A stretch of DNA of 64,000 nt, taken from NCBI GenBank assembly GCA_000002435.2, contig CM018792.1; one strand, written 5' to 3'. Below the pieces are notes generated by a model. It saw nothing but the letters and a program-made list of their open reading frames with translations. It had not been told where the DNA came from and did not search any database. Shown here in pieces: positions 17,674 to 62,019 of the stretch; the stretch's first letter is position 1, and every line of letters starts with the position of its first letter. The DNA is from Giardia intestinalis (Eukaryota). The position numbers and the translations under genes were made by a program.

Positions 17674-18611
17674 ATACCAAACCTTTGTGATAGTTTTCTT
17701 GCCCGTTCCATGTCCATGCTTAGTACAGTTGATAGTCCTTTCCAAATGACAGGGTCGAACTCATGTTGGTAAGCAGAATCTACTTGATCATCTGATTGCT
17801 GCGTATCCGAAAAACAAATTGTTGACCTAACATATAAAGACTCATATTCGTGCTTATTAAGGTCTATTTGTAGACCATGAATTGCGTAAAGTCGTTGCTG
17901 TTCTATCTTATCTGTGTATCTTCTTATCGTAATTAATCCTTCTGCATACAATTGCGCTATATCAAAGATAGCATGCACCGTTCGAGTAAAGTCTGTTGGG
18001 CTGAGAAATACGAAGGCCAGGGGGTAGAAGCCGCGGCGCGAGAGCTCCGTGACCCGCGCGAGGAGCCCCTGCTTCCGGCGCTCCTGGAGCTCGGCGCCGC
18101 ACATCGCGAGGGCCTCGTAGCGCCGCCGCTCGACGGCCTGCGCGCCGGAGGGCTCTGCCTCCCGGGGCCGCGGGGGAGCCCTGGGGGCTGCGGGCCCTGC
18201 GGTGCCGGCGGCGCACCCCGCGTACAGCGAGGCCGCGAGCTCGGGCGGGAAGCGGGCGGCGTACCCGGCCTGGAACGCGTCGGCGAGGAGGCGCAGGTCG
18301 ACGCGCGGCGGGTCTGCAGGGGCCCCGGCCCGGGGGAGGAGCCGCAGCTGGCCGCGGAGGAAGCCGGCGCCCTGGTCCTCGGCCGCCCGGGCCACCCGCG
18401 CCTCCAGGCTCCGGGCAGACAGGCGCACCGTGGCGGACAGCGCGGCCTCCGTCTGCAGCATCAGGCCGACGTCCCCCCGGGGCTGGGCGGCGTAGGACTC
18501 GTAGCCGTCCCGGAGCTCGGCCAGGAGCGCCGTGACCGCCGCGTGGTCCCGGGCCTGCGCGGCCGCCTGCACCCGGGCGGAGACGCTCGCGAGGCGCGCA
18601 CGGGGCTCCAT
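17667..18611 (-). CDS. cassette gene A, full-length form (314 aa): GC-rich N-terminal ~202 codons fused in frame to ~111 host-composition codons
   Basis: The ATG at 18611 lies 11 nt from the A/T island 'gaatttt'. GC3 is near 100% up to 18012, and the same frame then continues without a stop through normal-composition DNA to the TGA at 17667. The upstream part of the 780-aa track ORF is a GC artefact. Confidence 0.65.
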   Translation of the reverse strand: MEPRARLASVSARVQAAAQARDHAAVTALLAELRDGYESYAAQPRGDVGLMLQTEAALSATVRLSARSLEARVARAAEDQGAGFLRGQLRLLPRAGAPADPPRVDLRLLADAFQAGYAARFPPELAASLYAGCAAGTAGPAAPRAPPRPREAEPSGAQAVERRRYEALAMCGAELQERRKQGLLARVTELSRRGFYPLAFVFLSPTDFTRTVHAIFDIAQLYAEGLITIRRYTDKIEQQRLYAIHGLQIDLNKHEYESLYVRSTICFSDTQQSDDQVDSAYQHEFDPVIWKGLSTVLSMDMERARKLSQRFGIQ

Positions 18612-18653
18612 CGGACGGGGCGGAATTTTGCCGGCCGGCCAAAAATTCACTCG
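18612..18653. promoter_or_regulatory. 42-bp divergent A/B promoter with near-palindromic A/T islands
   Basis: GAATTTTGCCGGCCGGCCAAAAATTC (18623-18648) sits between the two divergent ATGs. It is one of only about five A/T-rich spots in the whole block. Confidence 0.55.
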
Positions 18654-19793
18654 ATGGACTGCATCGGCCGCGGCGTCCTCCTCCCCCCGGGCGGGGCGTG
18701 CTCGTGCGGGGCGCTTCTGGCGGAGCTGCAGCGGGTCTGCCCCCTCCTCGCCGCCTCCCCGGGGGTCTGCGCCGCGCCCCGGGCCCTTGCGTGCTGCCAC
18801 CAGCCCCCGTGCCTCGAGATCGCGCCGGCGCCGGCCACCCCGCGCAGCGCCGTCCGGGTCCCTGGGTCCGCGTGCACGGCTCCACCGCCCGCCGCAGGGC
18901 CCCCGGAGGCCGCCCCGGCCGAGAGCGTCCAGGTGACCCTCAGCGCCCAGCGCGAGTCGTTCGTGATGCAGACGATGCGGCAGGCGCACTACGGCGGCGG
19001 AGAGGCCCCCGCGAGGGCGGAGAGCGCCCGCCTGCCCGCCCCGCAGGCCTCGGACCCGAGGGAGGCCCGGCGGAGCCACGCGTCCCGCCCGCGGACGGCC
19101 GGCCCCCGCCTCCCCGCCTGCCCCGAGGAGCCCCCCGGCAGGGTCCAGTTCCGGGGCGCCCCCGAGGCCCCGCCCCTGCGCTGCGAGCCGGCCCCGCCCT
19201 CCGAGTTCAGCGACTTCGGGTGCGAGCTGCTCGCGGCGGGCCAGCCCGAGGACCGGCGGGTCTGCGGCGCCCCGTGGGTGGACGCGCAGGACCTGCTGAG
19301 CGACGGCTCCGAGCACAGCGAGTTCTACCGCCTCGTCGAGAGGGAGCTCGCGCGGCTTCCGGAGCCCGCGGCCCCGGCCCTCCCGGAGAGCGAGCCCTCG
19401 CTGGACGCGCTGCCCGTGCACGCCTCGCCCCGGGGCCCGCAGATCATCGAGCCCACGCCGGCCGCCCTGCAGGAGCCAGAGGAGCCCGCGCCCCCGCAGC
19501 CCCCCACGCCGGGCCGCTCCGACAGCGTCTCGGCAGACATCACGGAGTCGCTCCTCGTGGAGGGCCGGCCCCTGCCCGACCGCCCCCCGGGCCCGGAGCC
19601 GTCCGAGGGCAGCGCCGGGTACAGCGGAGAGGCCTTCGACAGCTCCGGCTCGCCCCGGGGCCTGACCGACGAGGCCGCGGGGTCTGCGGGCCTGGACGAG
19701 GAGGACCTGCTGGGGTCCGTCGGCGGGGACCTGCGGGCGCTGCTCATGGACAGCGGGTCCGGGTCGCTGTCTGCGGGGGCCTGGCCGGAGTGA
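18654..19793 (+). CDS. cassette gene B: acidic, Pro/Ala-rich, probably disordered protein (379 aa)
   Basis: ATG preceded by 'ccaaaaattcactcg'. GC3 is near 100% in this frame. The TGA stop is embedded in AGTGAAC (19789-19795). The N-terminal ~100 codons are uncertain, because the substitution cluster there is mostly nonsynonymous. Confidence 0.55.
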   Translation: MDCIGRGVLLPPGGACSCGALLAELQRVCPLLAASPGVCAAPRALACCHQPPCLEIAPAPATPRSAVRVPGSACTAPPPAAGPPEAAPAESVQVTLSAQRESFVMQTMRQAHYGGGEAPARAESARLPAPQASDPREARRSHASRPRTAGPRLPACPEEPPGRVQFRGAPEAPPLRCEPAPPSEFSDFGCELLAAGQPEDRRVCGAPWVDAQDLLSDGSEHSEFYRLVERELARLPEPAAPALPESEPSLDALPVHASPRGPQIIEPTPAALQEPEEPAPPQPPTPGRSDSVSADITESLLVEGRPLPDRPPGPEPSEGSAGYSGEAFDSSGSPRGLTDEAAGSAGLDEEDLLGSVGGDLRALLMDSGSGSLSAGAWPE

Positions 19794-19795
19794 AC
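19789..19795 (+). terminator. AGTGAAC poly(A)-signal-like motif overlapping the gene B stop
   Basis: It matches the Giardia-type AGTRAAY consensus and is an isolated A/T-containing motif in GC-rich DNA. Confidence 0.5.
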
Positions 19796-19816
19796 TCGGG
19801 AGAGCCTTTTTATTGA

Positions 19817-22327
19817 ATGGATTCTGCGCCACTCGCCGTCGCGATCCGGGAGCACGTCCCGGGCCCGAGGCCCCCGCCGCGGCCGTCCGGGGGGCGGTCC
19901 CTCTTCGCGCAGGCCGTGGCCGCCGGGGCCGGACAGACCGGGAGGCCCTTCGCCCTCGGGCAGCCCCCGCCGCGCGCCCCGGCCCCAGCGCCGCCCCGGG
20001 GCCCCCCACCGCCCCCCGCCGCAGAGGACCCGGGCGGGCCCCTCCTCGGGTACGGGGGCGCCGCAGACCCGGAGGCCGTCCCGTTCTGCAGCGCGGCGGA
20101 CATCGGGCTCCTCTGCCGGTCGACGAACCCCGCCCAGCGCGAGTACGGGCTCCGGATGCTCGCGAACGCCGTCGCGCTCCGGCGCGTCCGGGACGGCGGC
20201 GCCCCCGACCCCGTCCTCGAGGCCCTGCTCTGCCTCCCCGCCGACCCGCACGCGTGCCCCTCGTCTGCCGGCCACCTCCTCCTCCTGGGCCTGCGGGACG
20301 CCCTGGAGTCCGGGAGCCCCGGCCTCCTCGACGCCGCCCTCTCCGGCCTCGCCACGGTCTTCGTCGCCGACGAGGGCTTCCTCAGCGAGACCGTCCACGT
20401 CGGGGCCGCGCTGCTCGGGCTGACGTCCAGCTCGGTCGCCTTCCCCCTCGGCTCCCTGCTGCGGCGGCTCGTCGAGCACGGGCTCCCGGGGCTCCTGGGC
20501 CAGGCCCTCGACGCCGCCGCGCGCGCAGACGAGCGGCGCCGGGAGCGGCTCGCCCACAGCGCGTACCTGCTGGCCGAGCGCGTGCTCATCGGCTGCTGCC
20601 CCGCAGACGAGCCCCCGGAGACCGCCGCCGGCCTGCGGGCCCTCGCGGAGCGGCTCCTCGCGGCGCTCCTGGGCGAGCTCGCCGGGCTGGCGGAGACGGG
20701 GGCCTTCCTGACGACCGCCTCCCGCGTCGCCCTCCGGACGCTCTGCTACGACCACGTCCTCGACGGCCACGCGCTCGGCCGGGACGCCGTCGCCCTCCTC
20801 GTCGAGTCCCTCGAGGCGTTCGTCGGGGCGCTCCCCGGCCAGGACGAGGCGGTCCGCACAGAGCTCCTCTCGGCCGCCACGCTCCACTACCTCCTCGTCG
20901 CCCGGGTCCTGCGGGGGAGCCCCGAGCTCTGCGCCCTGCACGCGGCCGTCTCTGCGACGTGCGCCGCCGCCCTGGAGCGCCACGCCCCGGCCGCCCCCGC
21001 GGAGCTCAGCGCGCTCCTCGTCCTGCTCCGGATCCTCCGGGCCCGGGCCGCCGTCCCCCGCGCGCGCCTGGGGCTCTCGGAGGCATGCTTCCGGCGGCTG
21101 GTCGACTGGCGGGCCCCGCCCGAGGCCGGGGGCTTCGCGCTGCCCCAGGGGCCCTCCGCGGCGTTCGCCCCGTTCTACGCCCTCGCGGCCGTCCAGTGGC
21201 GCGGCCCGGGCGAGTGGGGCGCGGCGGAGGCCTGGGTCGGCTGCGTGATGGACGTCCTCGCCAGCGGGCCCCCGGTCGCGCGCTGGGCGCCCCCGGCCGT
21301 CGACGCCCACCGGCGGGCAGGCGTGCTCCCGTGCGCGGTGACCGACGCAGGGGTCGCCCTCGCGCTCCTCGTCGCGGCCCTGGCGGCCGTCTGGGGCCCC
21401 GGGCTCCCGTTTGCCGCCGGCCTCGCCGAGCGGGTCGGGGAGCGCCTGGCAGGGCTCCCGGCCGAGTTCCGGTTCGTCGTCGCGTTCCCGCTCGCCCGGC
21501 TCCTCCCCCCGCTGCCCGCTATCGAGTGCGGGCTCTACCCGAACGCGGCGCTCCTCGGGGCGCTCCGGGCCGTCACGGGCCACCCGGGCTACGACCCCGC
21601 GGCAGAGGCGCTTGCGCACGTCGACGCCCGCTGCCCGTGCCCCGCGCTCGCGGCCCTCCACGCGGCGTGCGTGCTCGCCTCGGACGGGATGCGGCGCGAC
21701 GGGGCGTGGCGGCTCGCGGTCCTCCGGCTCGCGCTGCAGCGCCTGGCCGGGCTGGAGACCGCAGGGGCCGCCCGGGGCCGCGTCCTCGCGTACGGGCTCC
21801 TCTGCGTCCTCGACACGCTGACGGGCGTCTGTCGCCTCCCCCCGGACGCCGCGGCCCTCCTCGCGGAGACGCTCGCCGGGGTCCTCCGCCTCGCCCGCGC
21901 AGGCCCCGCCCCCGCCGCCGAGCTCCTCTACGCAGCGCCCGCCGGGGGGCTCCGGACGCTCGACGCCGCCGCCGGCGCGTTTGTCGAGGGCCTCCACGGG
22001 GGCGCGGCGGTGCTCCCCGAGGCCCCGCTCGTCTACCTCGCGCTCCTCCACCCGCAGCTCGTCCCGGACCCCCGCCGCCGGGCAGAGCTCTGGTCCGGGC
22101 TCGCGCTCCTGCGGCTCGACTTCGCGGCGCTCGACGGGGGCCTCCTCGCGGGGCTCTGCGAAGACGACCCCGCGCCCGTCCTCGCGTGCCTCGCGTGCTA
22201 CGAGCGCCGCGCAGAGACCGCCCTGTCGCGCCGCGTCCTCGCCCGGTACGCAGAGGCCCACCGGGGGCAGAGGCCCGACCGGGTCGTCGTCGCGGCCGTC
22301 GAGGAGGCCCTCCGACCAGCGGGCTAG
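19817..22327 (+). CDS. cassette gene C: 836-aa Ala/Leu-rich alpha-helical-repeat (ARM/HEAT-like) protein
   Basis: ATG preceded by 'cctttttattga'. GC3 is near 100%. Six of the 7 between-copy substitutions are third-position synonymous changes in this frame. The overlapping 925-aa (+) and 978-aa (-) ORFs are Arg/Pro/Gly low-complexity artefacts. Confidence 0.8.
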   Translation: MDSAPLAVAIREHVPGPRPPPRPSGGRSLFAQAVAAGAGQTGRPFALGQPPPRAPAPAPPRGPPPPPAAEDPGGPLLGYGGAADPEAVPFCSAADIGLLCRSTNPAQREYGLRMLANAVALRRVRDGGAPDPVLEALLCLPADPHACPSSAGHLLLLGLRDALESGSPGLLDAALSGLATVFVADEGFLSETVHVGAALLGLTSSSVAFPLGSLLRRLVEHGLPGLLGQALDAAARADERRRERLAHSAYLLAERVLIGCCPADEPPETAAGLRALAERLLAALLGELAGLAETGAFLTTASRVALRTLCYDHVLDGHALGRDAVALLVESLEAFVGALPGQDEAVRTELLSAATLHYLLVARVLRGSPELCALHAAVSATCAAALERHAPAAPAELSALLVLLRILRARAAVPRARLGLSEACFRRLVDWRAPPEAGGFALPQGPSAAFAPFYALAAVQWRGPGEWGAAEAWVGCVMDVLASGPPVARWAPPAVDAHRRAGVLPCAVTDAGVALALLVAALAAVWGPGLPFAAGLAERVGERLAGLPAEFRFVVAFPLARLLPPLPAIECGLYPNAALLGALRAVTGHPGYDPAAEALAHVDARCPCPALAALHAACVLASDGMRRDGAWRLAVLRLALQRLAGLETAGAARGRVLAYGLLCVLDTLTGVCRLPPDAAALLAETLAGVLRLARAGPAPAAELLYAAPAGGLRTLDAAAGAFVEGLHGGAAVLPEAPLVYLALLHPQLVPDPRRRAELWSGLALLRLDFAALDGGLLAGLCEDDPAPVLACLACYERRAETALSRRVLARYAEAHRGQRPDRVVVAAVEEALRPAG

Positions 22328-22328
22328 C

Positions 22329-22335
22329 GTTCACT
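22329..22335 (-). terminator. AGTGAAC poly(A)-signal-like motif overlapping the kinase stop
   Basis: The minus strand reads TGAGTGAAC. Only 7 bp separate the convergent stops of C and D. Confidence 0.5.
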
Positions 22336-23264
22336 CAATCAGGGGCACCTGACCCCAGGGCGGCCCGCAGGCCCGCGACCTCCCCCCGGAGCCGGGCGAC
22401 CTCGTCCTCCAGGGCCTTGAAGCGCAGGGCCGTCGCGACCGCAGGCGCCCCGCCCTCTGCGTCGAGGAGCTCCACGAGGGCCGCGGCGGTGAGGCGGCGC
22501 TCCGGCTCCAGGACGAGGAGGTGGGCGAGGACGCCCCGGACGACGGGGTCCCCGACCGCGCCCAGGTCCGGCCGCCAGCCCGCGACGTAGACCTCCGCGG
22601 GGGCCCGCCCGGAGAGGAACGGGGGCCTGCCGCCCGCCGCGAGCTCGTAGGCGACCATCCCGAGGCTCCACATGTCCGCGGCCGGCGTGTGGCTCCCGCC
22701 CCGCAGGACCTCCGGCGCGGCGTAGACGGGGACGGCCATGGAGGCGAGCCCCCCGGGGCCCTCCCTGCAGAGCCCGAAGTCGGAGATGGCGAACTCCGCC
22801 CCGGCCTCGTCGAGGAGGACGTTCGCGGGCCGCAGGTCGCAGTGCGTGAGGGCGGGGAGCGGGGCGCCCGCGGCGTCGGTCTTCCCGGGCCGGTGGAGGT
22901 AGGCGAGCCCCGCGCCCACCTGGCGGAGGACGGCGACGACCATCTCGCGCGGGGCGAGCTGCCTTCTGCGGCGGAGGCTCCGGATGGCCCCGTCGAGGGA
23001 GCCTGCGTAGCGCCGCATCTCGACGTAGATGTAGCCCTCGTGCCGGACGACGCGCCCGTACTCGACGACGTTCGGGTGGCGGAGGCGCGGGAGGGTCCGG
23101 AGCTCGAGCTCGAGCGAGGCCTGCGCGTCGGGGGGCAGCCCGTCGGTCGGGATCTCCTTGACCGCCCTGTCGGGGGCGCTCTTCAGGCCGTAGACGGTCC
23201 CGTGGGCCCCGCTCCCGAGCTCTGCGCCCAGGTCTTCGAGGAGGGCGTCGATGGCCTCGGACAT
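22335..23264 (-). CDS. cassette gene D: NEK-like Ser/Thr protein kinase with short coiled-coil tail (309 aa)
   Basis: ATG preceded by 'attaaaaag'. Motifs are LGSGAHGTVY, AVKEI, HPNVVEY, HCDLRPANVLL, SDFGL, AAPEV and DMWSLG. The TGA stop overlaps AGTGAAC. Confidence 0.9.
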   Translation of the reverse strand: MSEAIDALLEDLGAELGSGAHGTVYGLKSAPDRAVKEIPTDGLPPDAQASLELELRTLPRLRHPNVVEYGRVVRHEGYIYVEMRRYAGSLDGAIRSLRRRRQLAPREMVVAVLRQVGAGLAYLHRPGKTDAAGAPLPALTHCDLRPANVLLDEAGAEFAISDFGLCREGPGGLASMAVPVYAAPEVLRGGSHTPAADMWSLGMVAYELAAGGRPPFLSGRAPAEVYVAGWRPDLGAVGDPVVRGVLAHLLVLEPERRLTAAALVELLDAEGGAPAVATALRFKALEDEVARLRGEVAGLRAALGSGAPD

Positions 23265-23268
23265 CTTT

Positions 23269-23595
23269 TTAATCCGCGACTGGGCGATTGGGTGGGCTCA
23301 ATCGCTTGGGCTCAGATCGGGGCCTGTATAGATTCACCGAACAGATATGACAATTAGCGCACTTACTACCTAAGTTACGTCTTCCTGCAGCAGAAAAATC
23401 CAATGAGACCACCGCGCTCTTAGTAATATTAGAATTTGCGCATTTTGTCTTATCGTTATTAGAGTCAAAGATTTTTATCCTGGCACAATTATTGGATCTG
23501 TCCTTGTAGTTAGTAGTGGAAAATCCCACTCCACATGATGTTTGTGCCCATATAAACTGGATAATTAAGGCAACAAACACAAATCTGCCAAGCAT
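23269..23595 (-). CDS. small ORF with signal-peptide-like N-terminus, reading into the right end of copy 1 (doubtful)
   Basis: ATG at 23595 and a hydrophobic N-terminus, MLGRFVFVALIIQFIWA. The first 93 codons are host-composition DNA, and the last 15 codons plus the stop lie inside the repeat. Confidence 0.25.
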   Translation of the reverse strand: MLGRFVFVALIIQFIWAQTSCGVGFSTTNYKDRSNNCARIKIFDSNNDKTKCANSNITKSAVVSLDFSAAGRRNLGSKCANCHICSVNLYRPRSEPKRLSPPNRPVAD

Positions 23596-56287: not shown

Positions 56288-56911
56288 CTAAAGAGTAAGC
56301 TTAAGAAATACGAAGGCCAGGGGGTAGAAGCCGCGGCGCGAGAGCTCCGTGACCCGCGCGAGGAGCCCCTGCTTCCGGCGCTCCTGGAGCTCGGCGCCGC
56401 ACATCGCGAGGGCCTCGTAGCGCCGCCGCTCGACGGCCTGCGCGCCGGAGGGCTCTGCCTCCCGGGGCCGCGGGGGAGCCCTGGGGGCTGCGGGCCCTGC
56501 GGTGCCGGCGGCGCACCCCGCGTACAGCGAGGCCGCGAGCTCGGGCGGGAAGCGGGCGGCGTACCCGGCCTGGAACGCGTCGGCGAGGAGGCGCAGGTCG
56601 ACGCGCGGCGGGTCTGCAGGGGCCCCGGCCCGGGGGAGGAGCCGCAGCTGGCCGCGGAGGAAGCCGGCGCCCTGGTCCTCGGCCGCCCGGGCCACCCGCG
56701 CCTCCAGGCTCCGGGCAGACAGGCGCACCGTGGCGGACAGCGCGGCCTCCGTCTGCAGCATCAGGCCGACGTCCCCCCGGGGCTGGGCGGCGTAGGACTC
56801 GTAGCCGTCCCGGAGCTCGGCCAGGAGCGCCGTGACCGCCGCGTGGTCCCGGGCCTGCGCGGCCGCCTGCACCCGGGCGGAGACGCTCGCGAGGCGCGCA
56901 CGGGGCTCCAT
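56288..56911 (-). CDS. cassette gene A, C-terminally truncated form (207 aa)
   Basis: Codons 1-202 are identical to copy 1. At the repeat edge the frame runs into the local flank and ends ...FVFLKLTL then TAG. Confidence 0.5.
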   Translation of the reverse strand: MEPRARLASVSARVQAAAQARDHAAVTALLAELRDGYESYAAQPRGDVGLMLQTEAALSATVRLSARSLEARVARAAEDQGAGFLRGQLRLLPRAGAPADPPRVDLRLLADAFQAGYAARFPPELAASLYAGCAAGTAGPAAPRAPPRPREAEPSGAQAVERRRYEALAMCGAELQERRKQGLLARVTELSRRGFYPLAFVFLKLTL

Positions 56912-56953
56912 CGGACGGGGCGGAATTTTGCCGGCCGGCCAAAAATTCACTCG

Positions 56954-58093
56954 ATGGACTGCATCGGCCGCGGCGTCCTCCTCCCCCCGGGCGGGGCGTG
57001 CTCGTGCGGGGCGCTTCTGGCGGAGCTGCAGCGGGTCTGCCCCCTCCTCGCCGCCTCCCCGGAGGTCTGCGCCGCGCCCCGGGCCCTTGTCTGCTGCCGC
57101 CAGCCCCCGTGCCTCGAGATCGCGCCGGCGCCGGCCACCCCGAGCAGCGCCGTCCGGGTCCCTGGGTCCGCGTGCACGGCTCCACCGCCCGCCGCAGGGC
57201 CCCCGGAGGCCGCCCCGGCCGAGAGCGTCCAGGTGACCCTCAGCGCCCAGCGCGAGTCGTTCGTGATGCAGACGATGCGGCAGGCGCACTACGGCGGCGG
57301 AGAGGCCCCCGCGAGGGCGGAGAGCGCCCGCCTGCCCGCCCCGCAGGCCTCGGACCCGAGGGAGGCCCGGCGGAGCCACGCGTCCCGCCCGCGGACGGCC
57401 GGCCCCCGCCTCCCCGCCTGCCCCGAGGAGCCCCCCGGCAGGGTCCAGTTCCGGGGCGCCCCCGAGGCCCCGCCCCTGCGCTGCGAGCCGGCCCCGCCCT
57501 CCGAGTTCAGCGACTTCGGGTGCGAGCTGCTCGCGGCGGGCCAGCCCGAGGACCGGCGGGTCTGCGGCGCCCCGTGGGTGGACGCGCAGGACCTGCTGAG
57601 CGACGGCTCCGAGCACAGCGAGTTCTACCGCCTCGTCGAGAGGGAGCTTGCGCGGCTTCCGGAGCCCGCGGCCCCGGCCCTCCCGGAGAGCGAGCCCTCG
57701 CTGGACGCGCTGCCCGTGCACGCCTCGCCCCGGGGCCCGCAGATCATCGAGCCCACGCCGGCCGCCCTGCAGGAGCCAGAGGAGCCCGCGCCCCCGCAGC
57801 CCCCCACGCCGGGCCGCTCCGACAGCGTCTCGGCAGACATCACGGAGTCGCTCCTCGTGGAGGGCCGGCCCCTGCCCGACCGCCCCCCGGGCCCGGAGCC
57901 GTCCGAGGGCAGCCCCGGGTACAGCGGAGAGGCCTTCGACAGCTCCGGCTCGCCCCGGGGCCTGACCGACGAGGCCGCGGGGTCTGCGGGCCTGGACGAG
58001 GAGGACCTGCTGGGGTCCGTCGGCGGGGACCTGCGGGCGCTGCTCATGGACAGCGGGTCCGGGTCGCTGTCTGCGGGGGCCTGGCCGGAGTGA
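56954..58093 (+). CDS. cassette gene B, copy 2
   Basis: It has the same signals as copy 1 and differs by 5 amino-acid changes and 1 synonymous change. Confidence 0.55.
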   Translation: MDCIGRGVLLPPGGACSCGALLAELQRVCPLLAASPEVCAAPRALVCCRQPPCLEIAPAPATPSSAVRVPGSACTAPPPAAGPPEAAPAESVQVTLSAQRESFVMQTMRQAHYGGGEAPARAESARLPAPQASDPREARRSHASRPRTAGPRLPACPEEPPGRVQFRGAPEAPPLRCEPAPPSEFSDFGCELLAAGQPEDRRVCGAPWVDAQDLLSDGSEHSEFYRLVERELARLPEPAAPALPESEPSLDALPVHASPRGPQIIEPTPAALQEPEEPAPPQPPTPGRSDSVSADITESLLVEGRPLPDRPPGPEPSEGSPGYSGEAFDSSGSPRGLTDEAAGSAGLDEEDLLGSVGGDLRALLMDSGSGSLSAGAWPE

Positions 58094-58116
58094 ACTCGGG
58101 AGAGCCTTTTTATTGA

Positions 58117-60627
58117 ATGGATTCTGCGCCACTCGCCGTCGCGATCCGGGAGCACGTCCCGGGCCCGAGGCCCCCGCCGCGGCCGTCCGGGGGGCGGTCC
58201 CTCTTCGCGCAGGCCGTGGCCGCCGGGGCCGGGCAGACCGGAAGGCCCTTCGCCCTCGGGCAGCCCCCGCCGCGCGCCCCGGCCCCAGCGCCGCCCCGGG
58301 GCCCCCCACCGCCCCCCGCCGCAGAGGACCCGGGCGGGCCCCTCCTCGGGTACGGGGGCGCCGCAGACCCGGAGGCCGTCCCGTTCTGCAGCGCGGCGGA
58401 CATCGGGCTCCTCTGCCGGTCGACGAACCCCGCTCAGCGCGAGTACGGGCTCCGGATGCTCGCGAACGCCGTCGCGCTCCGGCGCGTCCGGGACGGCGGC
58501 GCCCCCGATCCCGTCCTCGAGGCCCTGCTCTGCCTCCCCGCCGACCCGCACGCGTGCCCCTCGTCTGCCGGCCACCTCCTCCTCCTGGGCCTGCGAGACG
58601 CCCTGGAGTCCGGGAGCCCCGGCCTCCTCGACGCCGCCCTCTCCGGCCTCGCCACGGTCTTCGTCGCCGACGAGGGCTTCCTCAGCGAGACCGTCCACGT
58701 CGGGGCCGCGCTGCTCGGGCTGACGTCCAGCTCGGTCGCCTTCCCCCTCGGCTCCCTGCTGCGGCGGCTCGTCGAGCACGGGCTCCCGGGGCTCCTGGGC
58801 CAGGCCCTCGACGCCGCCGCGCGCGCAGACGAGCGGCGCCGGGAGCGGCTCGCCCACAGCGCGTACCTGCTGGCCGAGCGCGTGCTCATCGGCTGCTGCC
58901 CCGCAGACGAGCCCCCGGAGACCGCCGCCGGCCTGCGGGCCCTCGCGGAGCGGCTCCTCGCGGCGCTCCTGGGCGAGCTCGCCGGGCTGGCGGAGACGGG
59001 GGCCTTCCTGACGACCGCCTCCCGCGTCGCCCTCCGGACGCTCTGCTACGACCACGTCCTCGACGGCCACGCGCTCGGCCGGGACGCCGTCGCCCTCCTC
59101 GTCGAGTCCCTCGAGGCGTTCGTCGGGGCGCTCCCCGGCCAGGACGAGGCGGTCCGCACAGAGCTCCTCTCGGCCGCCACGCTCCACTACCTCCTCGTCG
59201 CCCGGGTCCTGCGGGGGAGCCCCGAGCTCTGCGCCCTGCACGCGGCCGTCTCTGCGACGTGCGCCGCCGCCCTGGAGCGCCACGCCCCGGCCGCCCCCGC
59301 GGAGCTCAGCGCGCTCCTCGTCCTGCTCCGGATCCTCCGGGCCCGGGCCGCCGTCCCCCGCGCGCGCCTGGGGCTCTCGGAGGCATGCTTCCGGCGGCTG
59401 GTCGACTGGCGGGCCCCGCCCGAGGCCGGGGGCTTCGCGCTGCCTCGGGGGCCCTCCGCGGCGTTCGCCCCGTTCTACGCCCTCGCGGCCGTCCAGTGGC
59501 GCGGCCCGGGCGAGTGGGGCGCGGCGGAGGCCTGGGTCGGCTGCGTGATGGACGTCCTCGCCAGCGGGCCCCCGGTCGCGCGCTGGGCGCCCCCGGCCGT
59601 CGACGCCCACCGGCGGGCAGGCGTGCTCCCGTGCGCGGTGACCGACGCAGGGGTCGCCCTCGCGCTCCTCGTCGCGGCCCTGGCGGCCGTCTGGGGCCCC
59701 GGGCTCCCGTTTGCCGCCGGCCTCGCCGAGCGGGTCGGGGAGCGCCTGGCAGGGCTCCCGGCCGAGTTCCGGTTCGTCGTCGCGTTCCCGCTCGCCCGGC
59801 TCCTCCCCCCGCTGCCCGCTATCGAGTGCGGGCTCTACCCGAACGCGGCGCTCCTCGGGGCGCTCCGGGCCGTCACGGGCCACCCGGGCTACGACCCCGC
59901 GGCAGAGGCGCTTGCGCACGTCGACGCCCGCTGCCCGTGCCCCGCGCTCGCGGCCCTCCACGCGGCGTGCGTGCTCGCCTCGGACGGGATGCGGCGCGAC
60001 GGGGCGTGGCGGCTCGCGGTCCTCCGGCTCGCGCTGCAGCGCCTGGCCGGGCTGGAGACCGCAGGGGCCGCCCGGGGCCGCGTCCTCGCGTACGGGCTCC
60101 TCTGCGTCCTCGACACGCTGACGGGCGTCTGTCGCCTCCCCCCGGACGCCGCGGCCCTCCTCGCGGAGACGCTCGCCGGGGTCCTCCGCCTCGCCCGCGC
60201 AGGCCCCGCCCCCGCCGCCGAGCTCCTCTACGCAGCGCCCGCCGGGGGGCTCCGGACGCTCGACGCCGCCGCCGGCGCGTTTGTCGAGGGCCTCCACGGG
60301 GGCGCGGCGGTGCTCCCCGAGGCCCCGCTCGTCTACCTCGCGCTCCTCCACCCGCAGCTCGTCCCGGACCCCCGCCGCCGGGCAGAGCTCTGGTCCGGGC
60401 TCGCGCTCCTGCGGCTCGACTTCGCGGCGCTCGACGGGGGCCTCCTCGCGGGGCTCTGCGAAGACGACCCCGCGCCCGTCCTCGCGTGCCTCGCGTGCTA
60501 CGAGCGCCGCGCAGAGACCGCCCTGTCGCGCCGCGTCCTCGCCCGGTACGCAGAGGCCCACCGGGGGCAGAGGCCCGACCGGGTCGTCGTCGCGGCCGTC
60601 GAGGAGGCCCTCCGACCAGCGGGCTAG
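58117..60627 (+). CDS. cassette gene C, copy 2 (836 aa)
   Basis: The ORF is intact, with one replacement (Q->R) and 6 synonymous differences relative to copy 1. Confidence 0.8.
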   Translation: MDSAPLAVAIREHVPGPRPPPRPSGGRSLFAQAVAAGAGQTGRPFALGQPPPRAPAPAPPRGPPPPPAAEDPGGPLLGYGGAADPEAVPFCSAADIGLLCRSTNPAQREYGLRMLANAVALRRVRDGGAPDPVLEALLCLPADPHACPSSAGHLLLLGLRDALESGSPGLLDAALSGLATVFVADEGFLSETVHVGAALLGLTSSSVAFPLGSLLRRLVEHGLPGLLGQALDAAARADERRRERLAHSAYLLAERVLIGCCPADEPPETAAGLRALAERLLAALLGELAGLAETGAFLTTASRVALRTLCYDHVLDGHALGRDAVALLVESLEAFVGALPGQDEAVRTELLSAATLHYLLVARVLRGSPELCALHAAVSATCAAALERHAPAAPAELSALLVLLRILRARAAVPRARLGLSEACFRRLVDWRAPPEAGGFALPRGPSAAFAPFYALAAVQWRGPGEWGAAEAWVGCVMDVLASGPPVARWAPPAVDAHRRAGVLPCAVTDAGVALALLVAALAAVWGPGLPFAAGLAERVGERLAGLPAEFRFVVAFPLARLLPPLPAIECGLYPNAALLGALRAVTGHPGYDPAAEALAHVDARCPCPALAALHAACVLASDGMRRDGAWRLAVLRLALQRLAGLETAGAARGRVLAYGLLCVLDTLTGVCRLPPDAAALLAETLAGVLRLARAGPAPAAELLYAAPAGGLRTLDAAAGAFVEGLHGGAAVLPEAPLVYLALLHPQLVPDPRRRAELWSGLALLRLDFAALDGGLLAGLCEDDPAPVLACLACYERRAETALSRRVLARYAEAHRGQRPDRVVVAAVEEALRPAG

Positions 60628-60634
60628 CGTTCAC

Positions 60635-61564
60635 TCAATCAGGGGCACCTGACCCCAGGGCGGCCCGCAGGCCCGCGACCTCCCCCCGGAGCCGGGCGAC
60701 CTCGTCCTCCAGGGCCTTGAAGCGCAGGGCCGTCGCGACCGCAGGCGCCCCGCCCTCTGCGTCGAGGAGCTCCACGAGGGCCGCGGCGGTGAGGCGGCGC
60801 TCCGGCTCCAGGACGAGGAGGTGGGCGAGGACGCCCCGGACGACGGGGTCCCCGACCGCGCCCAGGTCCGGCCGCCAGCCCGCGACGTAGACCTCCGCGG
60901 GGGCCCGCCCGGAGAGGAACGGGGGCCTGCCGCCCGCCGCGAGCTCGTAGGCGACCATCCCGAGGCTCCACATGTCCGCGGCCGGCGTGTGGCTCCCGCC
61001 CCGCAGGACCTCCGGCGCGGCGTAGACGGGGACGGCCATGGAGGCGAGCCCCCCGGGGCCCTCCCTGCAGAGCCCGAAGTCGGAGATGGCGAACTCCGCC
61101 CCGGCCTCGTCGAGGAGGACGTTCGCGGGCCGCAGGTCGCAGTGCGTGAGGGCGGGGAGCGGGGCGCCCGCGGCGTCGGTCTTCCCGGGCCGGTGGAGGT
61201 AGGCGAGCCCCGCGCCCACCTGGCGGAGGACGGCGACGACCATCTCGCGCAGGGCGAGCTGCCTTCTGCGGCGGAGGCTCCGGATGGCCCCGTCGAGGGA
61301 GCCTGCGTAGCGCCGCATCTCGACGTAGATGTAGCCCTCGTGCCGGACGACGCGCCCGTACTCGACGACGTTCGGGTGGCGGAGGCGCGGGAGGGTCCGG
61401 AGCTCGAGCTCGAGCGAGGCCTGCGCGTCGGGGGGCAGCCCGTCGGTCGGGATCTCCTTGACCGCCCTGTCGGGGGCGCTCTTCAGGCCGTAGACGGTCC
61501 CGTGGGCCCCGCTCCCGAGCTCTGCGCCCAGGTCTTCGAGGAGGGCGTCGATGGCCTCGGACAT
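60635..61564 (-). CDS. cassette gene D, NEK-like kinase, copy 2
   Basis: The ATG at 61564 follows 'attaaaaag'. There is one replacement (P->L). The 15-codon upstream extension in the track ORF (start 61609) is created by the 8-bp insertion and lacks an initiator. Confidence 0.9.
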   Translation of the reverse strand: MSEAIDALLEDLGAELGSGAHGTVYGLKSAPDRAVKEIPTDGLPPDAQASLELELRTLPRLRHPNVVEYGRVVRHEGYIYVEMRRYAGSLDGAIRSLRRRRQLALREMVVAVLRQVGAGLAYLHRPGKTDAAGAPLPALTHCDLRPANVLLDEAGAEFAISDFGLCREGPGGLASMAVPVYAAPEVLRGGSHTPAADMWSLGMVAYELAAGGRPPFLSGRAPAEVYVAGWRPDLGAVGDPVVRGVLAHLLVLEPERRLTAAALVELLDAEGGAPAVATALRFKALEDEVARLRGEVAGLRAALGSGAPD

Positions 61565-62019
61565 CTTTTTAATCCGCGACTGGGCGATTGGGTGATTGGG
61601 CGGGCTCAATCGCTTGGGCTCAGACTGAGATACCGCCTAGCTGAGCGCCGCTCAATGAGGGTGATCGGGCGGAATTGAACGAAAAGGAAAGGACCCGACC
61701 ATCGTTCCAGAGATGGCTTGACCGAGTTCGCCTGTCGACTAGGATCAGATCAGGCAGCTAGTACTGGACTACTCACTATCAATATGTATTCTATCACTGG
61801 AGTTATGGAACAGCTAAGTGAAGTCTATATTCTTAAGATGAATCTTAATTGTCAATAATTGATGTTTACAAATCTGGAGTCTCTGCATCTTAGGTCAATC
61901 CTAAATAGGTAAATATGAGCATGTCCAGATAAAGTTTACTGTCAACCCACATAGTAAGATAAGTTAAAGCAGATTACGACCTCCGAGGTTGAAAGAGGGA
62001 ATGCTTGTTGATGACCTCA

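Follow-up and report, generated by a model that had tools for sequence, protein, structure and literature searches.

Gene C of a duplicated GC-rich island in Giardia intestinalis: a constrained protein-coding gene with a possible RPAP1-like role

Introduction

In yeast and human, RPAP1/Rba50 takes part in assembling RNA polymerase II, acting as a platform for the GPN guanosine triphosphatases (GTPases) (PMC8136413). In MINIYO/RPAP1, the elements follow one another in the order RPAP1_N, RPAP1_C and then armadillo (ARM) repeats (PMC6748027). With regard to chromosomal setting, GC-biased gene conversion has been raised as one explanation for the GC-rich ribosomal DNA (rDNA) of Giardia (PMC10123126). 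The present work concerns a stretch of 64,000 nucleotides from Giardia intestinalis (assembly GCA_000002435.2, contig CM018792.1), hereafter called the window, and within it gene C (19817-22327, plus strand), which encodes a protein of 836 amino acids (aa) and lies in a GC-rich island that occurs twice in the window. The locus is compared below with both of these described systems.

According to exact protein look-ups, the window belongs to a chromosome contig of 2.76 Mb from G. intestinalis WB clone C6. Both copies of gene C are present in the reference protein set, each labelled "hypothetical protein": copy 1 (19817-22327, plus strand) is GL50803_00d60704 (KAE8304033.1) and carries glutamine at residue 444, while copy 2 (58117-60627, plus strand) is GL50803_0060704 (KAE8304057.1), carries arginine at that residue and differs from copy 1 by 7 nucleotides (nt) and this one residue. 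In the 2020 reassembly of the WB genome, a gene that first appears in that assembly bears an identifier in the 60000 range (60288), and duplicates carry the letter "d" (PMC7000408). The gene C open reading frame (ORF) has been part of the reference annotation since that assembly, and the constraint described here merely confirms it, so that the gene by itself is a finding of little weight. What it adds is a functional lead, namely a possible divergent RPAP1/Rba50-like scaffold for polymerase II assembly in Giardia, and a view of the extent to which local GC pressure can change the residues of a conserved protein that nonetheless survives.

Coding frame and selective constraint

Gene C is a genuine protein-coding gene of G. 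intestinalis with two intact, near-identical copies, and it is present twice because it lies within a duplicated segment of 5.3 kb. A protein search recovered full-length relatives at 99, 89, 79, 69 and 69% identity, and the DNA of the relatives was retrieved as eight loci (L001-L008), of which L001-L004 are the diverged orthologues (89, 79, 69 and 69%). Frame +1, which starts at the ATG at 19817, is open over its full length in all orthologues (821-853 codons), and every insertion or deletion (indel) in the orthologue nucleotide alignment is a multiple of three. In L003, where the GC content of third codon positions (GC3) is only 0.73, each of the five other frames contains 11-15 stops. Furthermore, the GC content of codon positions 1, 2 and 3 in gene C is 0.85, 0.58 and 0.96, a pattern (GC1 above GC2, and GC2 far below GC3) that fits only the plus-strand frame +1. 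The first-pass annotation had spoken of six open frames; only three are open across gene C in WB (+1, +3 and -1), and the others contain 5-10 stops.

Selection was measured on the same alignments. By the method of Nei and Gojobori, the ratio of nonsynonymous to synonymous rates (dN/dS) of gene C against its orthologues is 0.26-0.58, values that are inflated, since a GC3 of 96% leaves limited room for synonymous change. A pairwise maximum-likelihood codon model, in which codon frequencies calculated from the base composition of each codon position (F3x4) allow for the extreme codon bias, gave a dN/dS (omega) of 0.10-0.22, with twice the log-likelihood difference from omega = 1 amounting to 89-420. 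When the same model was applied frame by frame, omega was 0.19-0.22 in frame +1, about 3 in frame +3, about 1.0-1.2 in frame -1 and 0.31-0.34 in frame -2, which runs antisense over the same wobble position and is interrupted by many stops. Within assemblage A, six copies hold 36 segregating sites, 20 of them synonymous and 16 replacement, which over 733 synonymous and 1776 replacement sites corresponds to a ratio of nonsynonymous to synonymous polymorphism (pN/pS) of about 0.33. Altogether, a conserved ORF, triplet indels, an omega significantly below 1 and unconstrained wrong frames are all found: the annotated frame is the coding frame of gene C, and purifying selection has acted on its protein across the whole G. 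intestinalis species complex. The first-pass annotation had arrived at purifying selection from the two copies alone and had proposed a formal dN/dS analysis with further copies or strains; its conclusion holds, mainly through the omega of the orthologues and the pN/pS of assemblage A, and the added sequences bring no stop or frameshift into the frame.

Two longer ORFs overlap gene C and were considered as the real gene, together with the proposal that the region is non-coding. One is an antisense ORF of 978 aa (19325-22261, minus strand) and the other an ORF of 925 aa in frame +3 that begins with TTG (19813-22590, plus strand). Both are fully open in WB, which is explained by the rarity of stop codons at 80% GC, but in L003 their frames are interrupted by 12 and 15 stops, in L001 and L004 the minus frame contains 2, and the omega values of about 1.0-1.2 (frame -1) and about 3 (frame +3) are those of unconstrained sequence. 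In addition, GC by codon position fits plus-strand frame +1 alone, and no Rfam family is found in the window. The antisense 978-aa ORF and the +3 925-aa ORF were both rejected as artefacts of the scarcity of stops, broken in L003, and the probability left to this family of explanations is practically negligible.

The start of gene C is marked by an AT-rich element of 11 nt, cTTTTTATTgA (19806-19816, plus strand; 58106-58116 in copy 2), which adjoins the ATG. It is the sole AT-rich patch within the 23-nt spacer between genes B and C, and it is kept in all orthologues, including the most diverged L003 and L004, while the adjacent spacer bases vary. Giardia genes typically have short AT-rich initiators or promoters, and by analogy the element is likely to be an initiator or promoter of this Giardia type. 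At the other end, gene C and the NEK kinase gene of the island are convergent, with stop codons 7 nt apart.

Differences between the two copies

A column-by-column comparison showed that the two copies differ inside 19817-22327 only at 19933, 19942, 20134, 20209, 20296, 21145 and 21147, which exactly reproduces the seven sites of the first-pass annotation and adds none. Read in the frame of the ATG at 19817, the codon changes are also as it had described them: six are synonymous and fall on codon position 3 (GGA/GGG, GGG/GGA, GCC/GCT, GAC/GAT, CGG/CGA and CCC/CCT), and the seventh replaces glutamine in copy 1 with arginine in copy 2 (CAG/CGG, codon 444). All seven are transitions. Its estimate of about 0.007 for at least six of seven changes on third positions is arithmetically correct, the binomial tail under a uniform null (p = 1/3) being 0.0069.

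How much these sites say about selection depends on the null. Chance or mutation bias would account for the same pattern if GC-to-AT transitions favour third positions that are saturated with G and C, in which case the six of seven would be uninformative on selection. This explanation draws on the fact that every change is a transition, and on a null restricted to GC-to-AT transitions, under which third positions make up 40% of the mutable sites, as follows from a GC3 of 0.96, so that the tail rises to about 0.02. The codon phase was, moreover, chosen after inspection, which costs up to a further factor of three in significance. The same repeat also contains gene B, with 5 replacement codons and 1 synonymous change between its copies, and the NEK gene, with 1 replacement. 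The gene B counts, however, also argue the other way: since the differences there are mostly replacements, the synonymous excess is specific to gene C within the repeat, though the events are few, and this contrast argues for constraint on gene C itself. The independent orthologue tests agree with constraint as well, and the claim of selection does not depend on the seven sites, so that the question of chance or bias is already largely settled; we regard that explanation as improbable.

The same considerations define what the seven sites can prove. The first-pass annotation had held that they identify the true frame and that both copies encode a functional protein. The frame it named is correct, as the orthologues show, but the sites alone are suggestive, and they give a phase without a strand, the antisense frame that shares the wobble position being excluded only by its stop codons. 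Similarly, both copies are intact and have identical conserved start contexts, but seven sites cannot show function. Nor are the copy differences a clean divergence clock, because the copies probably exchange sequence by gene conversion. The synonymous excess may then represent the same constraint acting on the few mutations accumulated since the copies were last homogenized by gene conversion.

Predicted fold and a possible RPAP1-like function

Structure prediction with AlphaFold, which the first-pass annotation had proposed, yielded a moderate-confidence model of the gene C protein when eight sequences were supplied (predicted local distance difference test, pLDDT, 66.5; predicted template modelling score 0.57); five sequences had given only an unusable model (pLDDT 47.7). 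The protein is predicted to be an all-alpha, armadillo-like solenoid of about 40 helices, in which residues 1-90 are disordered and proline-rich with one short conserved block. Tandem helical repeats, the hallmark of armadillo/HEAT alpha-solenoids, are present in the predicted model. A Foldseek search of the Protein Data Bank (PDB) returned only generic HEAT/ARM solenoids, with template modelling scores of at most 0.26, and the structural neighbours include axonemal ARM proteins, catenins and karyopherins. The resemblance to established armadillo scaffolds (p120 catenin, plakophilin, APC, beta-catenin, importin-alpha and ZYG11B) is one of fold class only, with 9-15% identity on a model of moderate confidence. 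The first-pass annotation had described the protein as rich in alanine and leucine with helical-repeat character; the alanine richness is a by-product of GC pressure rather than a family trait.

The statement that the protein matches no family holds at curated Pfam thresholds, at which gene C, gene A and gene B of the island have no match, but a recurrent sub-threshold signal exists. In a permissive Pfam scan of eight family members, RPAP1_C (PF08620) was the sole recurrent family, found in 5 of the 8 with a best E-value of 0.005. In every case the match coincides with the N-terminal motif of highest conservation (DIGLLCRSTNPAQREYGLRML, aa 94-117), which in WB corresponds to codons 94-117 (ADIGLLCRSTNPAQREYGLRMLAN; 20096-20167, plus strand). 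Scores span 14-21 bits: the WB protein has 14 bits at this motif, and a fragment of the consensus rises to 21.4 bits (E = 2.4e-4), short of the gathering score of 27 and over profile positions 40-65 of 69 only.

The arrangement of the protein is comparable to that of RPAP1. As in RPAP1/MINIYO, a short conserved N-terminal block precedes a second element, here the motif L-x-R-S-x4-Q-R-x3-L-x2-L with its RPAP1_C match some 45 residues further on, and a long armadillo-like helical region comes last, so that the architecture of the long RPAP1 forms, N-terminal motifs followed by armadillo-like repeats, is found in gene C in the same order. Its length of 836 aa lies between that of yeast Rba50 (439 aa) and that of plant and animal RPAP1 (about 1400 aa). 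It differs from RPAP1/Rba50 in that its RPAP1_C match stays below the gathering score and RPAP1_N is undetected. Because a sub-threshold RPAP1_C motif is rightly placed within a matching architecture, the most likely function of gene C would be that of a highly divergent factor of the RPAP1/Rba50/MINIYO type, a tentative proposal that we treat as a lead and not as membership of the family. Such a factor would serve as a scaffold for the assembly and import of RNA polymerase II, together with GPN GTPases, and would be expected to bind GPN-loop GTPases and the polymerase subunits Rpb2/3/10/11. The transcription machinery of Giardia is highly reduced and divergent.

It is also quite conceivable that gene C encodes a lineage-specific armadillo/HEAT scaffold unrelated to RPAP1, for instance a cytoskeletal, flagellar or trafficking adaptor, and that the RPAP1_C match of its short helical motif arose by chance. 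A partial, sub-threshold Pfam score, the missing RPAP1_N, structural neighbours that are generic ARM/HEAT proteins, and a family confined to Giardia and close relatives would all be expected of such a scaffold. They are countered by the recurrence of RPAP1_C as the only family across the members, by its constant position on the most conserved N-terminal motif and by the agreement in element order with RPAP1/MINIYO.

Taken as a whole, the reading of gene C as a real, duplicated and constrained gene with a possible RPAP1-like role is considered highly probable, and a number of points weigh against it or against its RPAP1 part. The RPAP1_C score is below the Pfam cut-off and covers 26 of the 69 profile positions. 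RPAP1_N (PF08621) gave no match at E <= 10 in the eight members or in N-terminal consensus fragments, in a HMMER search whose filters may drop very weak matches. A family profile found no match among PDB sequences at E <= 10, and in 1.84 billion representative proteins it recovered four relatives and none beyond. The structure model is of moderate confidence and its PDB matches are generic. In the searchable literature the gene C identifiers are absent and no expression or proteomic data were found. Finally, the seven between-copy sites taken alone are thin and suggestive (P = 0.007-0.02), and gene conversion is deduced from distances and contig layout, not from mapped tracts. Two further word-indexed protein searches with family alignments returned the same family only, probably because they were swamped by low-complexity words, and no mention of RPAP1 together with Giardia was found in the literature.

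Structure and composition of the GC-rich island

Gene C is itself ordinary, and the island that carries it is the more unusual feature. Self-BLAST revealed a single direct repeat in the window, in which 18004-23316 (copy 1) and 56304-61624 (copy 2) share 99.57% identity across 5321 aligned columns, with 15 mismatches and one 8-bp indel. The copies of this 5.3-kb repeat lie 38.3 kb apart on the same chromosome in direct orientation. Both stretches (about 18.0-23.3 kb and 56.3-61.6 kb) have a GC content of about 79% against a background of 41-52% (about 45%), and the jump in composition is sharp, its edges coinciding with the repeat boundaries. Each copy contains gene A (minus strand), gene B (plus), gene C (plus) and a NEK kinase gene (minus), and GC3 is 0.95-0.96 in all four as compared with 0.38-0.53 in flanking genes. 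According to Pfam and exact matches, the neighbouring ORFs encode NOG1, an INO80-type ATPase, an ankyrin-repeat protein and NEK kinases.

The composition of the gene C protein is correspondingly extreme. In WB it consists of 21% alanine, 49% glycine, alanine, arginine and proline together, and 5% phenylalanine, tyrosine, methionine, isoleucine, asparagine and lysine together; lysine is entirely absent from its 836 residues, and isoleucine and asparagine make up 0.6% and 0.4%. The homologues include a protein of Giardia muris, GMRT_14638 (TNJ27022.1; E = 4e-107 against the family profile), and proteins of 982 and 1125 aa from two more distant relatives. GMRT_14638 is a full-length homologue of 809 aa with 31% identity and the same conserved blocks, and is likewise unnamed. 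In contrast to the WB protein, it is of ordinary composition: the first group of residues amounts to 25% (49% in WB) and the second to 16% (5% in WB), and it contains lysines, of which WB has none. The gene for the 982-aa homologue has a GC3 of 0.52 and different neighbours, in the ordinary context of a 19-kb contig with 50% GC. The L003 protein is intermediate in composition between WB and G. muris, with a lysine content of 0.7% as compared with 2.2% in the G. muris orthologue.

These comparisons show that the extreme GC of the island is derived, the distant gene C homologue having a GC3 of 0.52 and the L003 lineage one of 0.73. Arginine appears to have replaced lysine throughout the gene C protein. 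Because the distant homologues are of ordinary composition and all island genes have a GC3 of about 0.96, the alanine richness and the absence of lysine are largely by-products of local GC pressure on an otherwise ordinary protein.

The island was also searched for other kinds of element. No RNA family was found by Rfam in the whole window and a transfer RNA scan found none; the idea that the island is rDNA, which is GC-rich in Giardia, was rejected as Rfam was empty across the window. A gene interrupted at the copy-1 insertion site was likewise rejected, since the copy-1 extension of gene A finds no continuation in the ORFs to the right of 23316.

Origin and upkeep of the island

An abrupt rise from 45% to 79% GC at the repeat boundaries, two copies, and genes of unassigned function are what might be expected if the island had come from a very GC-rich donor as foreign DNA or as a mobile element, with gene C as a passenger without a housekeeping role. 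The features of such elements are lacking, however. No inverted terminal repeats were found at the island, a Pfam scan of the window found no transposase or integrase domains, and copy-to-copy comparison showed that the boundary flanks are unrelated and that there is no target-site duplication. Furthermore, gene C has vertical homologues, one in G. muris and one in a more distant relative, where composition and chromosomal context are ordinary, the L003 lineage is intermediate at a GC3 of 0.73, the fourth gene of the island belongs to the NEK kinases, a family so named in Giardia annotation, and the promoter element is of host type. As there are no mobile hallmarks and gene C is vertically inherited, a foreign or mobile origin is unlikely, and we give the passenger proposal very little credence.

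The two WB copies of gene C differ at 7 sites, whereas WB and other assemblage-A sequences differ at 10-22. In another isolate, a 38,171-bp contig runs from the NEK gene into gene A and hence represents the spacer between two islands, which implies the same two-copy layout there. Together with short-read contigs that, in all lineages, end at or close to the edges of the island, this suggests an old duplication whose copies gene conversion has kept alike. A sharply bounded, duplicated island of 79% GC explains these assembly breaks at the locus, and the same context explains why gene C was missing from the first genome release.

Observations on single strains may be added. In the assemblage-A locus L006, the gene C contig has the left flank of copy 1 (L006:1-400 against 17810-18209), and its gene C is nearer to WB copy 2 (10 differences) than to copy 1 (13). 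Sites 20296 and 21145 are among several at which both WB alleles are shared across strains. The L006 and shared-allele pattern fits either gene conversion between the copies or collapsed assemblies.

Giardia rDNA is likewise a repeated locus whose GC content greatly exceeds that of the genome as a whole, and by analogy the composition of the island may plausibly have been driven by GC-biased conversion. The island differs from rDNA in that it is protein-coding, chromosome-internal within the window, present in two copies and without ribosomal RNA according to Rfam, and GC-biased conversion is here a deduction. A bolder and somewhat doubtful proposal is that the island is a chromosome-internal hotspot of GC-biased conversion, in which copies 38 kb apart keep homogenizing one another and four ordinary genes, a probable essential polymerase II assembly factor among them, have been driven to about 96% GC3. 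Conversion would then have remodelled the island proteins, to the point of the residue bias and the loss of lysine seen in gene C, while selection held the fold. If this were true, the island would serve as a natural experiment that reveals the limits to which a constrained protein can be driven by conversion bias, and it would provide a direct, measurable footprint of recombination in Giardia, an organism whose sexuality is debated.

Other genes and sites of the island

Gene B encodes a low-complexity protein of 379 aa rich in proline, alanine and serine, which matches exactly the hypothetical protein GL50803_00d23876 (18654-19793, plus strand); copy 2, GL50803_0023876, is at 56954-58093. Its orthologues lie upstream of gene C in L001-L004. 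Four of the five replacement codons between its copies are concentrated in codons 37-64 (18763-18843), a pattern opposite to that of gene C.

Gene A is represented by the GC-rich part of an ORF on the minus strand (18004-18611, ATG at 18611), with a GC3 of 0.95 in the frame plot. In copy 1 the ORF reaches 17667, and in copy 2 it spans 56288-56911 (207 aa). An orthologue of 171 aa is present in L004 and a partial annotation, DHA2_152232, in another isolate; the gene was not found among the NCBI proteins of WB. The extension in copy 1 runs for 112 codons past the island edge, is of ordinary composition and ends 7 nt inside the end of the ankyrin gene, and copy 2 stops 16 nt beyond the island boundary. 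Either the gene A of copy 1 has the original full length and that of copy 2 is a truncated form, or the extension arose by coincidence. The divergent spacer between genes A and B (18612-18653, 42 bp) holds the sole AT-rich patches thereabouts (GGAATTTTG ... CCAAAAATTCAC) and is probably a shared bidirectional promoter.

The NEK kinase gene (22335-23264, minus strand; copy 2 at 60635-61564) encodes a protein of 309 aa (KAE8304034.1), annotated as "Kinase, NEK" and matching Pfam Pkinase at E = 4e-32. The only indel between the island copies, 8 bp (GATTGGGC) present in copy 2 (23293 / 61594-61601), lies about 29 nt upstream of its ATG, in the presumed promoter, so that the two NEK copies could differ in expression. 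A third NEK kinase of 308 aa (KAE8303967.1), which clusters with the island NEK at 90% identity, is encoded outside the window on the same chromosome contig. There may therefore be a third copy of at least part of the island, and this would explain why short-read contigs break just inside the 3' end of the NEK gene.

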